Part shown: positions 1-9,694 of the stretch, piece by piece
Layout of the letters: every line of letters starts with the position of its first letter
Position numbering within the stretch: the stretch's first letter is position 1
IMG/VR virus record: IMGVR_UViG_2850808358_000010
Origin: a virus
Taxonomy: Duplodnaviria > Heunggongvirae > Uroviricota > Caudoviricetes
DNA: 11,607 nucleotides
Reading direction: 5' to 3' (one strand)
The notes under the pieces: model-generated
Told to the model about the DNA's origin: nothing
The model's database searches: none
The model's input: the letters and a program-made list of their open reading frames with translations, nothing else
Translations under genes and position numbers: made by a program

Positions 1-303
1 TTAACGCGTATTTTTCAGCGACTCCTGTGCAAAATACGCTGTTGCTTTTTTTAATATATCTCGCTCAAGGCGAGCTTCATTTAACGCCTTACGCAGTTGC
101 AGAATTTCAGATTCCAGTTCAGCCACCGTGCGGGAACCAGGAGTACCGAGCCCTTTTCTGGCGGCGGTAACCCATTGTCCTAAAGTGCCTTCAGGAAGGG
201 ATAATCGGGAAGCGCCTTCACTGATCGAAAGTTGATTTTCAAGAACCGTTCTGACAGCTTCGGCTTTGAACTCTTTAGAGTAACGTTGGGTTTTTCTGCT
301 CAT
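1..303 (-). CDS. IS3-family transposase OrfA (helix-turn-helix / leucine-zipper N-terminal part)
   Basis: The 100-aa ORF is identical to 8428..8730. It has the typical IS3 OrfA features: a basic HTH region and the heptad LESEILQLRKALNEARLERDILKK. OrfB of this copy lies outside the window. Confidence 0.9.
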   Translation of the reverse strand: MSRKTQRYSKEFKAEAVRTVLENQLSISEGASRLSLPEGTLGQWVTAARKGLGTPGSRTVAELESEILQLRKALNEARLERDILKKATAYFAQESLKNTR

Positions 304-367
304 TATTAGCTCCTTCTGATGCCATTCTATTTCAGGAAGGAGTGTCCGTTAAACTCAGGCTACCTCA
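1..367 (-). mobile_element. IS3-family insertion sequence, partial copy cut by the window edge (same element as 8364..9627, opposite orientation)
   Basis: The OrfA protein at 1..303 is identical to OrfA at 8428..8730. The reverse complement of 304..367 matches 8364..8427, including the terminus TGAGGTAGCCTGAGTTTAACGGACACTCC. The element end is at 367 (plus-strand TACCTCA). Confidence 0.85.
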
Positions 368-439
368 GCCTGCCAGCTCCTTACGGGTAGTCGGCTTCGG
401 CTTTCTTCCCCTTCCGGGTGCAACAGATTTTCCTGACAT
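365..439 (-). pseudogene. 5' stub of a small-terminase-like gene (P27-family-like N-terminus) truncated by the IS insertion
   Basis: Minus-strand ATG at 439..437 is preceded by AGGA 6 nt upstream. It translates MSGKSVAPGRGRKPKPTTRKELAG, then the IS terminus TGA (367..365) supplies the stop. The basic Gly/Arg/Lys/Pro-rich N-terminus and the position just after an HNH endonuclease fit a terS start; family recalled from memory. Confidence 0.4.
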
Positions 440-482
440 GTCAAATCCTGAAATTTTTAATTTCGCGGGTGTAAAAATTTGA

Positions 483-532
483 CGGGGCGGGCAGTCCGGA
501 AGACGTCAGGTCACAGGGATTTGCCCCGCCCC
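483..532. other. Candidate cos-type dyad: G/C-rich inverted motifs CGGGGCGGGCA (483..493) and TGCCCCGCCCC (522..532) around a 28-bp spacer containing GACGTC
   Basis: Near-perfect inverted repeat read directly from the sequence. It sits between the HNH endonuclease stop (555) and the start of the truncated terminase-like gene (439), which is where cos sites sit in HNH-dependent cos phages. Confidence 0.25.
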
Positions 533-554
533 TCCCTACAAGTGAGAATAATTA

Positions 555-905
555 TCACCTGATTCGTTCGCGCGCTGTTTTCGCTTTATGGCAGGGCCAG
601 CACAGACTCTGCAGGTTGCTGTCTGCGTCTGTTCCGCCATGCGCTTTCGGGATGATGTGGTCGACGGTTTTCGCCTCGCTCACCACACCGACACGCAGAC
701 ACAACTGACACAGACCTTTATCGCGCTTCAGAATACGGGCACGAATCACCGTCCATTTTGAGCCATAGCCACGCTGGTGGCGGCTCAGTCCGCGCTGGTG
801 CTGCACCCAGCCTTCACCGCGATGTTTATCGCAGTAACCCGAACTGTCTGTGGTTGTACCTGCACATCCACGCTTACGGCAGGCACGTGGGATTAGTGAT
901 GGCAT
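555..905 (-). CDS. HNH homing-type endonuclease (phage packaging-associated HNH)
   Basis: 116-aa ORF with Cys-rich zinc-binding pairs (CRKRGCAG, CDKH, CQLC, CWPCH) and the HNH core VDHIIPKAHGG...N. GAGG lies 6 nt upstream of the ATG. It follows the lysis cassette, as in HK97-like phages. Confidence 0.85.
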   Translation of the reverse strand: MPSLIPRACRKRGCAGTTTDSSGYCDKHRGEGWVQHQRGLSRHQRGYGSKWTVIRARILKRDKGLCQLCLRVGVVSEAKTVDHIIPKAHGGTDADSNLQSLCWPCHKAKTARERIR

Positions 906-8134: not shown

Positions 8135-8363
8135 GCAGCCACACCTCTGATACGAGAACGGTAACTGGGCCAGTTAAACGACAACCAGTTGCGTCCCCCG
8201 TCTGTGATCCTGTCGGCAATTCGGGGACTGATGAACGCCCACAACTCTTCCGGTGAGAGGTTACTGATCAGAATGGTGGGCAAGATACTTTCGTACCTGG
8301 CGTTGATAATTTCCTGCAAAATAGCCATTTCAGCCGCGCTGCCAAACTGAACGCCAACTTCGT
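8131..8363 (-). pseudogene. C-terminal fragment of a DnaC/IstB-like helicase-loader gene, decapitated by the IS insertion
   Basis: The residual ORF ...ILQEIINARYESILPTILISNLSPEELWAFISPRIADRI...SYRSR resembles the C-terminus of the DnaC/IstB AAA+ family as recalled. The six-frame ORF 8131..8412 takes its first 16 codons from IS sequence, so the native 5' part is missing. Confidence 0.55.
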
Positions 8364-8427
8364 TGAGGTAGCCTGAGTTTAACGGACACTCCTTCCTGAA
8401 ATAGAATGGCATCAGAAGGAGCTAATA

Positions 8428-8730
8428 ATGAGCAGAAAAACCCAACGTTACTCTAAAGAGTTCAAAGCCGAAGCTGTCAGAACGGTTCTTGAAAATCAAC
8501 TTTCGATCAGTGAAGGCGCTTCCCGATTATCCCTTCCTGAAGGCACTTTAGGACAATGGGTTACCGCCGCCAGAAAAGGGCTCGGTACTCCTGGTTCCCG
8601 CACGGTGGCTGAACTGGAATCTGAAATTCTGCAACTGCGTAAGGCGTTAAATGAAGCTCGCCTTGAGCGAGATATATTAAAAAAAGCAACAGCGTATTTT
8701 GCACAGGAGTCGCTGAAAAATACGCGTTAA
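8428..8730 (+). CDS. IS3-family transposase OrfA
   Basis: 100 aa, identical to the ORF at 1..303 (-). AGGAG lies upstream of the ATG. Confidence 0.9.
   Translation: MSRKTQRYSKEFKAEAVRTVLENQLSISEGASRLSLPEGTLGQWVTAARKGLGTPGSRTVAELESEILQLRKALNEARLERDILKKATAYFAQESLKNTR
8679..8686 (+). promoter_or_regulatory. Programmed -1 ribosomal frameshift slippery site (A AAA AAA G) joining orfA to orfB
   Basis: A7G run sits at the end of orfA in the zero frame (TTA AAA AAA GCA). The -1 frame stays open from here into orfB (8766..9584), whose frame is -1 relative to orfA. Confidence 0.7.
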
Positions 8731-8765
8731 TCGAACAATGGCGACAACAATTTCCCATTGAAGCG

Positions 8766-9584
8766 ATGTGTCAGGTATTTGGTGTATCCAGGAGCGGTTA
8801 TTACAACCGGGTACAGCATGAACCCTCAGACAGAAAACAAAGTGATGAGCGGCTAAAACTGGAGATTAAGGTGGCACATATCCGCACTCGCGAAACATAT
8901 GGAACCCGGCGGCTCCAGACGGAGCTGGCAGAGAATGGCATCATCGTTGGTCGTGACCGACTGGCACGTCTTCGTAAGGAGCTAAGGCTACGCTGTAAGC
9001 AGAAACGCAAGTTCAGAGCGACTACGAACCCGAACCACAATCTGCCAGTTGCGCCAAATCTGCTGAACCAGACGTTCGCTCCTACAGCACCAAATCAGGT
9101 CTGGGTGGCGGACCTGACGTATGTTGCCACACAGGAGGGATGGTTGTACCTCGCTGGCATCAAAGATGTTTATACGTGCGAAATTGTCGGCTACGCCATG
9201 GGAGAGCGCATGACAAAAGAGCTGACAGGTAAAGCCCTGTTTATGGCTCTCAGGAGCCAGCGCCCACCTGCCGGGCTAATCCACCACTCTGATCGAGGTT
9301 CACAGTACTGCGCATACGATTACCGGGTCATACAGGAGCAGTTTGGTCTGAAAACATCAATGTCGCGTAAAGGTAACTGTTACGACAACGCTCCGATGGA
9401 AAGCTTCTGGGGAACGCTGAAAAATGAGAGCCTGAGCCACTATCGTTTTAATAACCGGGATGAAGCCATCTCAGTAATACGGGAATACATTGAGATTTTC
9501 TACAATCGTCAGCGTCGTCACTCTCGTCTGGGGAATATCTCCCCGGCAGCCTTCAGGGAAAAATATCATCAGATGGCTGCTTAA
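8766..9584 (+). CDS. IS3-family transposase OrfB (DDE integrase-like catalytic domain), expressed as an OrfAB fusion
   Basis: 272 aa with DDE-type motifs (WVADLTYV..., HSDRGSQY..., ESFWGTLKNE) typical of the IS3 rve domain. Confidence 0.9.
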   Translation: MCQVFGVSRSGYYNRVQHEPSDRKQSDERLKLEIKVAHIRTRETYGTRRLQTELAENGIIVGRDRLARLRKELRLRCKQKRKFRATTNPNHNLPVAPNLLNQTFAPTAPNQVWVADLTYVATQEGWLYLAGIKDVYTCEIVGYAMGERMTKELTGKALFMALRSQRPPAGLIHHSDRGSQYCAYDYRVIQEQFGLKTSMSRKGNCYDNAPMESFWGTLKNESLSHYRFNNRDEAISVIREYIEIFYNRQRRHSRLGNISPAAFREKYHQMAA

Positions 9585-9694
9585 AAAAAGAACAAATGGT
9601 AGTGTCCGCTATTGCCAGTACACCTCAAAGGGGTTCATGTATTAAAAGTCGACGGAGTTAAAGAACGTTGGGTCGACTTAATGGAGATTTCAAA

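Follow-up and report, generated by a model that had tools for sequence, protein, structure and literature searches.

How did two copies of one insertion sequence come to lie in inverted orientation around some 8 kb of phage genes, and has the DNA between them been turned over by recombination? The question is raised by an 11,607-nt stretch of DNA (the window, by which we mean the whole stretch that was analysed) that matches Shigella boydii CP026877.1 at 100% identity, a genome whose proteins bear Shigella boydii names. We read the window as a decayed lambdoid prophage of Shigella boydii that integrated at ssrA and was reshaped by IS600. A sequence-only reading had proposed adjacent deletion and/or homologous inversion between the two copies; our comparisons bear out a deletion at the right-hand copy and argue against that inversion.

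Bases 1-367 and 8364-8730 form an inverted repeat of 367 nt that is 100% reverse-complementary, with 7996 nt between the two arms, confirming that a pair of the same IS3-family element brackets about 8 kb. Judged by their sequences, both elements are IS600, a 1264-bp member of the IS3 family: copies at least 99% identical to them carry the RefSeq name [quoted passage not shown]. The right copy is 1264 bp long, beginning with TGAGGTAGCC and ending with ACACCTCA, and the left copy is also 1264 bp. The terminal repeats are imperfect (TGAGGTAGCC...GTACACCTCA) and of the 5'-TG...CA-3' form, and two consecutive reading frames, orfA (HTH_Tnp_1) and orfB (rve), were recognized with Pfam, the programmed -1 frameshift being predicted from the RefSeq annotation of near-identical copies; length, ends and reading frames are all as in the IS3 family, whose members measure about 1.2-1.5 kb. 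The two copies had been called identical and the left one partial. Within the window both descriptions hold, but full-length alignment showed 1262 of 1264 bases to be identical, with mismatches at IS positions 842 and 885, and the left copy is complete in CP026877.1; the window simply ends inside it. Single-base differences in the IS600 copies vary between strains, a pattern that either gene conversion or polishing of repeats could explain. We considered these differences as tracers of hybrid origin and dropped them since the patterns disagree between assemblies.

The flanks of the copies were more informative. The right copy lies between CGT and AAG, as had been read, and has no target-site duplication (TSD). 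The outer flank of the left copy, which the sequence-only reading had singled out for a check, does not match its inner flank either: in IS orientation, GGC stands on the terS side and GTG on the ygcN side. As a positive control we used a third IS600, which lies 8 kb further right (window coordinates 17779-19042) and has a clean GAC/GAC duplication. Since this neighbouring copy carries a 3-bp TSD while the two window copies carry none, their absence marks a later rearrangement and not a different element. The element itself is no different from the IS600 of Shigella and enteroinvasive E. coli (EIEC), with the same 1264 bp, TGAGGT...ACCTCA ends, orfA (HTH_Tnp_1) and orfB (rve/DDE), and a neighbouring simple insertion with a 3-bp TSD; what sets the two window copies apart is the missing TSD, as in recombinant or post-deletion copies.

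Features of the window, in window coordinates.
Feature	Position	Strand	Evidence and details
IS600 left copy, 367 bp adjoining IRL	1..367	-	orfA 1-303; full copy at window coordinates -896 to 367 in CP026877.1
terS', first 24 codons (72 nt) of a P27-family small terminase subunit gene, cut by IS600	439-368	-	read from sequence
cos-like region between HNH gene and terS	440-554		cos site annotated under the match in the phiP27 record
HNH endonuclease gene, 116 aa	555..905	-	Pfam HNH, HNH_5 on identical protein
Lysis cassette	948..2120	-	holin S 1905-2120, endolysin R 1342-1905 (187 aa), Rz 948-1412; Pfam Phage_holin_2_1, Phage_lysozyme, Phage_lysis
Four phage-borne tRNA genes: Gly-UCC, Thr-UGU, Arg-UCU, CAU (tRNA-Ile in relatives' annotation)	2797..3107	-	ARAGORN; cluster also annotated in relatives
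Antiterminator Q gene, 128 aa, intact	4303..4689	-	Pfam Phage_antitermQ; identical to sister-strain Q
IS4, 1426 bp, simple insertion in rusA	4902..6327	+	Pfam Nterm_IS4, DDE_Tnp_1
DnaB-type replicative helicase gene, 463 aa, intact in this strain	6743..8134	-	Pfam DnaB_C
DnaC/IstB-like helicase-loader remnant, last 76 of 292 codons	8131..8363	-	identical to C-terminus of intact relative's 292-aa protein
IS600 right copy, complete	8364..9627	+	orfA 8428-8730, orfB 8766-9584; Pfam HTH_Tnp_1, rve
xis', 113-nt 3' remnant, first 97 nt lost	9628..9740	+	break after ...TGGAAAG
Tyrosine integrase gene, 390 aa, intact, reads toward att core	9695..10867	+	Pfam Arm-DNA-bind_2, Phage_integrase
att core, copy of last 26 nt of ssrA (tmRNA gene)	11002..11027	+	exact match, K-12 ssrA 3' end
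ypjA autotransporter gene 3' end, chromosomal flank	11188..11607	-	Pfam Autotransporter; collinear with K-12 ypjA

The gene order int-xis...dnaC-dnaB-rusA-Q-tRNAs-S-R-Rz-HNH-cos-terS is that of other defective lambdoid prophages at ssrA/ypjA, which have a phiP27-type HNH-cos-terS stretch and S21-type lysis genes. Homology to K-12 restarts at 11005, matching the right end of CP4-57, and the integrase protein has an exact match recorded as a Shigella boydii integrase. With phage phiP27, and with E. coli prophages whose annotation reads "phage terminase small subunit P27 family", the HNH-cos-terS stretch shares 92% identity. In the S. sonnei relatives terS is a different allele, and homology ends about 10 nt before its ATG. 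A related S. sonnei remnant at the same ssrA/ypjA site is truncated by IS2 and IS4, whereas the breakpoints here are IS600. The segment between the two IS600 copies does contain an IS4, absent from the sequence-only reading, with a 13-bp TSD (CAGCCTTCCGGAC, at 4889-4901 and 6328-6340). Its transposase frame is broken by an in-frame stop at 5184-5186, the reading frames 4986-5186 and 5202-6314 being in the same frame. The IS4 is missing from two sister genomes, where the alignment overlaps by 13 bp, and dnaB has a 7-bp deletion in sister genomes, at 6934-6940.

Compared with other ssrA/ypjA prophages, this one has no early region and no structural genes in place: all are either missing or displaced. 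We found no immunity or initiator genes in the window, and no phage structural genes within at least 8 kb on either side of it. The assortment of a functional lambdoid prophage, namely a repressor/cro switch, a full replication module, xis, and terminase, head and tail genes, is lacking here. With immunity and initiator genes absent and dnaC, xis and terS truncated (the last at codon 24), the prophage is probably a non-inducible remnant, as had been proposed, and would be unable to excise, replicate or package. Q, S, Rz, dnaB and int are still present as open reading frames, together with the four tRNA genes. The lysis cassette and Q had been described as intact. This stands for Q and for S and Rz, which are identical to the sister-strain versions, but not for endolysin R, in which a 1-nt deletion at 1417/1418 replaces the C-terminal QQ by an extension of 24 other residues.

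The right IS600 joins the end of the DnaC-like loader gene to what is left of xis. As first read, it cuts the loader gene. Of 292 codons 76 are left, the break separates IIDE from VGVQ inside the Walker B motif, and the intact relative's 292-aa protein has Pfam matches to IstB_IS21 and Bac_DnaA. On the other side, the integrase ATG at 9695 lies 67 nt past the IS600 end at 9627, also as read. The companion statement, that no immunity, cro/cI, recombination or xis genes precede int, is right about immunity genes but overlooked the 113-nt xis 3' remnant at 9628-9740: this region matches a contig with an intact 69-aa xis at 173 of 173 positions, and xis is annotated in a relative. The dnaC and xis remnants stand in their native relative orientation, and in intact relatives the two genes are separated by about 9-13 kb of early genes. 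The IS now stands in place of all that lay from the DnaC-like gene to xis/int, which is the geometry of a direct-repeat or IS-adjacent deletion, and the orientation of the right copy fits a loss of the entire early and immunity region. The predicted chimeras DnaC(1-215)-IRR and Xis(1-33)-IRL were not in the protein collection by exact look-up, an uninformative result, since the predictions were built on alleles of E. coli relatives.

The left IS600 truncates the terminase-like gene after 24 codons, as had been noted, and connects that point of terS (codon 24) with the 3' part of ygcN. Outside the copy we found the ygcN 3' part, ygcO, ygcP and onward; this flank lies beyond the window, and the sequence-only reading missed it. 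In K-12, ygcN is 115 kb away and in the opposite orientation, the two sites being at 2,777,964 and 2,893,063. Set against K-12, the order is collinear on the ypjA side and reversed on the ygc side. Since the outer flank is ygcN inverted relative to ypjA, the left copy is very probably an inversion breakpoint, and the data fit a chromosomal inversion of about 115 kb involving a different IS600 that lies outside the window. Such an inversion predicts a reciprocal chimera in which the ygcN 5' part, with GTG, is read into IRL, giving a 138-aa protein of YgcN residues 1-136 followed by VR. This exact protein, identical to EGI92497.1, is present in CP026877.1, so that GTG is a split duplication; the longest contig with it measures 5,129,092 bp, the size of that genome, and the alternative IRR-joined YgcN chimera was absent from the protein collection. 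Three of the four junctions expected of such an inversion were found in this way: terS'-GGC-IRL, IRR-GTG-ygcN3' and, via the predicted protein, ygcN5'-GTG-IRL. A scan of IMG/VR viral contigs gave no match to the ygcN5'-IRL junction, nor to IRR-GGC-rest-of-terS, for which it returned only unrelated IS600 junctions (with a different small-terminase tail, or at a non-phage site). A more complex history may have given the same three junctions.

The pair inside the window is itself a possible recombination substrate, being made of 1264-bp repeats that are 99.8% identical, inverted and 8 kb apart. It is nevertheless highly improbable that segment 368-8363 has been flipped, or is still flipping, through these two copies. 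The flank pairs (GGC, GTG) and (CGT, AAG) lack the reciprocal (a,b)/(b,a) pattern; with respect to xis-int, the genes from dnaC' to terS' are ordered and oriented as in intact relatives; and all four junctions occur in one orientation in three complete assemblies. An invertible segment should appear both ways round among isolates, and the check for both orientations of 368-8363 that had been suggested yielded a single one, against an intact relative and in 3 of 3 complete assemblies. On flank logic, the native orientation of the segment and the concordance of the three assemblies, we ruled out inversion by the window pair. We also regard it as very unlikely that the 8-kb block of dnaB, Q, the four tRNA genes, S, R, Rz and HNH is kept by selection, possibly for the supply of rare-codon tRNAs, while rarely flipping as an IS-bounded invertible cassette. 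Inverted IS copies do bracket a DNA segment in composite transposons too, and the two IS600 copies with their 8 kb could in principle have been inserted as a unit. The chance of this is close to nil: the outer flanks (left CAC, right AAG) share no duplication and led us to reject it, the inner segment runs contiguously and in native order with the external xis-int-att module, and the sequence outside the left copy belongs to a split chromosomal gene, the remainder of which lies at another IS600. Finally, IS copies are classic sites of misassembly, and the single-base patterns in these copies are oddly different between assemblies. That the junctions arose from collapsed or mis-joined IS repeats is nonetheless exceedingly improbable, as the four junctions are base-identical in three independent complete assemblies, contigs of short-read drafts stop at those same IS edges, and both YgcN chimeric fragments are annotated in an older draft genome (EGI92497.1, EGI92714.1).

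A less remote alternative concerns the right copy only. A single IS600 in dnaC or xis might have transposed intramolecularly into the other site, deleting the DNA between them with no recombination of two copies. Such an adjacent deletion, too, leaves a single IS that lacks a TSD and has unrelated sequence on either side, and we found no simple IS600 insertion with a TSD at the dnaC or xis site in any genome examined, relatives included. In the standard model of adjacent deletion one original flank is kept, and on that point the two routes look alike here. Transposition in the IS3 family goes by copy-out-paste-in, whereas adjacent deletions classically arise by another route. Moreover, Shigella genomes hold hundreds of IS copies, and recombination between copies is common (PMC7373316). 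We therefore consider adjacent deletion possible but rather doubtful, and the right-copy deletion probably had a two-copy origin.

Taken together, four IS600 insertions, a dnaC x xis deletion and a terS x ygcN inversion very probably explain the locus, that is, the directly observed element identity, flanks, gene truncations, inverted synteny and reciprocal ygcN5'-GTG-IRL junction in the same genome. The ancestral insertions would have lain in the dnaC-like gene (TSD CGT), in xis (AAG), in terS (GGC) and in the chromosomal ygcN (GTG), and would have been followed by two homologous recombination events between IS600 copies. Recombination between the dnaC and xis copies, in the same orientation, would have deleted everything from mid-dnaC to mid-xis, including the replication initiator, the cro/cI immunity region and the early-left genes (about 9-13 kb, judged from relatives), and left one hybrid copy at 8364-9627 with flanks CGT/AAG. 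Recombination between the terS and ygcN copies, in opposite orientation, would have inverted about 115 kb, comprising the prophage from int to terS', then ypjA and the genes as far as ygcN. The hybrid copy on the left, with flanks GGC/GTG, would thereby have come to adjoin the ygcN 3' part, and the reciprocal copy elsewhere would run from the ygcN 5' part through the GTG duplication into the IS600 IRL, with the rest of terS presumably on its far side. The two events probably took place in the order given here, by RecA-type recombination.

Both events follow a general rule: direct IS repeats give deletions and inverted ones give inversions, both prevalent in Shigella, and IS600 is among the five IS elements that have expanded in every Shigella species (Seferbekova et al. 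2021, PMC8072062; Hawkey et al. 2020, PMC7373316). Against that general pattern, ours is one specific case, terS x ygcN and dnaC x xis, in the ssrA prophage of S. boydii. None of 5,426 complete E. coli genomes contained the window junctions, and matches there combine only separate IS600, IS4 and phage pieces. A literature search for accession CP026877 returned no paper, and we did not find the terS x ygcN / dnaC x xis case described by name. The finding is an ordinary, already known kind of IS-driven genome decay in Shigella, and the locus matters little beyond its correct annotation. It does offer a clean worked example of how IS600 copies that lack a TSD record past recombination in Shigella: a deletion scar and an inversion breakpoint share one 11.6-kb window, the outer flank of the latter lying just outside, and a TSD-bearing control sits 8 kb away. 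It also illustrates that an IS pair within one window need not be the recombining pair, the partner of the left copy being about 115 kb away. In genome scans, findings of this sort should be classed as routine prophage decay, driven by IS elements, in a host-restricted pathogen.

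A repeat search returned a single long inverted repeat, 1-367 against 8364-8730 (367 nt, 100% complementary, arms 7996 nt apart), whose right arm is the beginning of a 1264-bp element with first bases TGAGGTAGCCTGAGTTTAACGGACAC and last bases GTGTCCGCTATTGCCAGTACACCTCA. Near-identical copies in complete E. coli genomes are annotated 'IS3-like element IS600 family transposase, programmed frameshift', and the IS600 proteins gave precomputed Pfam matches to HTH_Tnp_1 and rve. An exact protein match to the unusual 187-aa endolysin pointed to CP026877.1 (5,129,092 bp). The window was identical to this record across all 11,607 bases, and its exact integrase and endolysin protein sequences carry the name Shigella boydii. 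The sequence-only reading had described a partial and a complete copy of identical IS3-family elements. Repeat search and sequence reading bore out its coordinates for both, and the two are the same element; however, the left copy is full-length in CP026877.1, looking partial because the window edge cuts it, and the identity holds only in the visible stretch, with mismatches at IS positions 842 and 885. IS positions 78, 159, 842 and 885 correspond to window 209, 290, 8441, 8522, 9205 and 9248. At 78 and 159 we observed C in both copies of CP026877.1 and A in both copies of CP026845.1, a concerted pattern suggestive of either gene conversion between IS copies or artefacts from the polishing of repeats.

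Neither copy is flanked by a target-site duplication (TSD). In IS orientation, the right copy is bordered by CGT towards dnaC and by AAG towards xis, as had been noted from the sequence, and the proposed check on the outer flank of the left copy gave GTG, against GGC on the terS side. A third IS600 outside the window, in the pinH region (locus L022, one of the genome loci compared), served as a control and showed a clean GAC / IS / GAC, with K-12 coordinates that overlap across it by exactly 3 bp. IS600 therefore does produce 3-bp TSDs here, so their absence is informative.

Inversion between inverted copies with TSDs a and b yields hybrids flanked by (a,b) and (b,a). The observed flanks, (GGC, GTG) and (CGT, AAG), lack this reciprocity; thus, the window's two copies did not recombine together. 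Consistent with this, the enclosed block is in its native orientation relative to int, like that of the intact relative E. coli CFSAN029787. The four junctions between the IS ends (IRL and IRR, left and right inverted repeats) and the truncated genes, namely ygcN'/IRR, IRL/terS', dnaC'/IRL and IRR/xis', matched base for base, with one relative orientation throughout, in CP026877.1, CP026845.1 and JARKNR010000001.1. Draft assemblies break at those same IS edges, and this concordance argues against misassembly. The suggested search for both orientations of the enclosed segment, run on these three complete genomes, gave no sign of a flipped 8-kb block. We therefore rejected the homologous inversion proposed between the two copies, whose partner was wrong because the true one lies outside the window. 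Insertion as a composite transposon is ruled out by the pair's outer flanks, CAC and AAG.

Beyond the left copy lies a 293-aa fragment of YgcN (an ETF-quinone oxidoreductase homologue), broken at nt 406/407 (K-12 ygcN numbering) and followed in order by ygcO, ygcP, ygcQ, ygcR, ygcS, ygcU and ygcW. This flank matches K-12 2,893,063-2,900,791 in reverse, and the window from 11005 onward is collinear with K-12 from 2,777,964 onward (the right end of CP4-57, then ypjA). Sites 115 kb apart and same-facing in K-12 are therefore now head-to-head across IS600. We reasoned that an IS600 in terS could have recombined with an inverted IS600 in ygcN, giving a chromosomal inversion. Such an event would require a reciprocal junction in the same genome, ygcN nt 1-409 including GTG and then IRL, with a predicted product of YgcN residues 1-136, VR and a stop codon. 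This 138-aa sequence was found exactly in the protein collection (EGI92497.1), and the longest of the contigs that encode it measures 5,129,092 bp, the same as CP026877.1; the alternative chimera joined to IRR was absent from the collection. GTG stands on both ygcN halves beside two different IS600 copies and is therefore a split TSD. The C-terminal YgcN chimera is annotated in S. boydii (EGI92714.1, RIF82446.1), and the fourth junction (IRR-GGC-rest of terS) was not found in viral-contig scans. Together, these junctions point to the left copy as a chromosomal inversion breakpoint.

The right copy has a different history. On one strand and in this order, CFSAN029787 carries dnaB, a gene for a 292-aa ATP-binding protein (Pfam IstB_IS21 and Bac_DnaA; the DnaC-like loader), replication genes, ash genes, a gene for a LexA-type repressor, the early-left genes, xis and int. 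Of the loader gene, the window retains just the final 76 codons, identical to those of CFSAN029787, with the break in the Walker B motif between IIDE and VGVQ. On the other side, the homology shared with prophages whose integrase is 95% identical begins inside xis, and beyond the break a contig carrying the complete 69-aa xis matched at 173/173. Both the 67-nt spacing to the integrase and the terS stub of 24 codons were as first described. Because dnaC' and xis' still face each other as they do natively, this was a deletion, and the earlier deletion reading holds for this copy. Judged from relatives, some 9-13 kb would have been lost, either by recombination of two directly oriented IS600 copies or by IS-adjacent deletion. 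No simple IS600 insertion at the dnaC or xis site was found among the genomes compared, and the chimeric proteins predicted for both sites with alleles from E. coli relatives were absent from the protein collection on exact look-up.

Features of the prophage remnant and its surroundings (window coordinates; negative values and those above 11607 lie in the source genome outside the window)
Feature	Position	Strand	Details
Left IS600	-896 to 367	minus	CP026877.1
terS'	439-368	minus	24 codons
Imperfect inverted repeat	2594-2682		31-nt arms, 84% complementarity, 27 nt apart; between tRNA cluster and holin gene
tRNA genes	2797-3107		between ORF6N gene and holin gene, downstream of Q; Gly-UCC, Thr-UGU, Arg-UCU, CAU
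IS4	4902-6327		1426 bp, in rusA; perfect 13-bp TSD CAGCCTTCCGGAC; site 4889-6340
Right IS600	8364-9627	plus	
orfA	8428-8730		right copy, 100 aa
orfB	8766-9584		right copy, 272 aa
xis' remnant	9628-9740		113 nt; alignment to contig with intact xis
int start (ATG)	9695		
att core	11002-11027		
IS110-family element	11623-13074		1452 bp, no TSD (L022)
Third IS600	17779-19042		L022

The integration site is the tmRNA gene, the last 26 nt of ssrA being repeated exactly as the att core just downstream of int. At the equivalent K-12 position the cryptic prophage CP4-57 has its right end (psaA pseudogene). The ssrA-side att partner presumably now lies on the far side of an inversion. Just past the window's right end, ypjA is interrupted by the IS110-family element. 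Leftward from the right IS600, the minus strand carries dnaC' (truncated), dnaB, an 85-aa ORF, rusA split by IS4, Q, the ORF6N gene, four tRNA genes, S, R, Rz, HNH, a phiP27-like cos region and terS'. The 442-codon IS4 transposase frame has one in-frame stop (5184-5186), and the insertion is missing from two sister genomes and present in several draft assemblies of other samples. TGCCTGT at 6934-6940 is missing from both sister genomes (a 7-bp deletion). dnaB is intact here (463 aa) but frameshifted in the sister genomes. The remnant is decaying independently strain by strain. Q, S and Rz are identical to a sister strain's; R has a 1-nt deletion at 1417/1418 relative to the sister genomes, which replaces the C-terminal QQ with a 24-residue tail (165 to 187 aa). 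The 187-aa endolysin is also encoded by a different prophage in CP026845.1 (locus L015), and its sharing could reflect prophage-to-prophage gene conversion or recurrent homopolymer errors. All four tRNA genes look intact in this otherwise decaying prophage; the CAU tRNA is Met per ARAGORN and Ile per RefSeq in relatives. The imperfect inverted repeat beside them may serve the late operon as a terminator or a regulatory hairpin. Missing from the remnant are a repressor, an initiator, a complete loader gene and a complete xis, and structural genes are absent from its vicinity; by its gene content the remnant appears unable to be induced, as had been proposed.

S. sonnei (L005-L013) also has a related remnant at ssrA/ypjA, with an identical HNH protein. 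There IS2 cuts the early region beside dnaB and IS4 cuts the late region within the portal gene, a parallel, independent case of IS erosion of the same prophage type. IS600 belongs to a set of five IS elements that have expanded in every Shigella species; the reference chromosomes contain 229-348 IS copies, which disrupt genes and favour deletions and rearrangements (PMC7373316). One reconstruction placed 103 of 114 inversions on Shigella branches, and the same paper gives the rule that deletions arise from direct repeats and inversions from inverted ones (PMC8072062). The finding of the sequence-only reading is real; element, mechanism and biological setting were all known before, and the sequence belongs to a deposited, annotated genome. 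Overall, deletion and inversion are both illustrated at this locus in textbook form.
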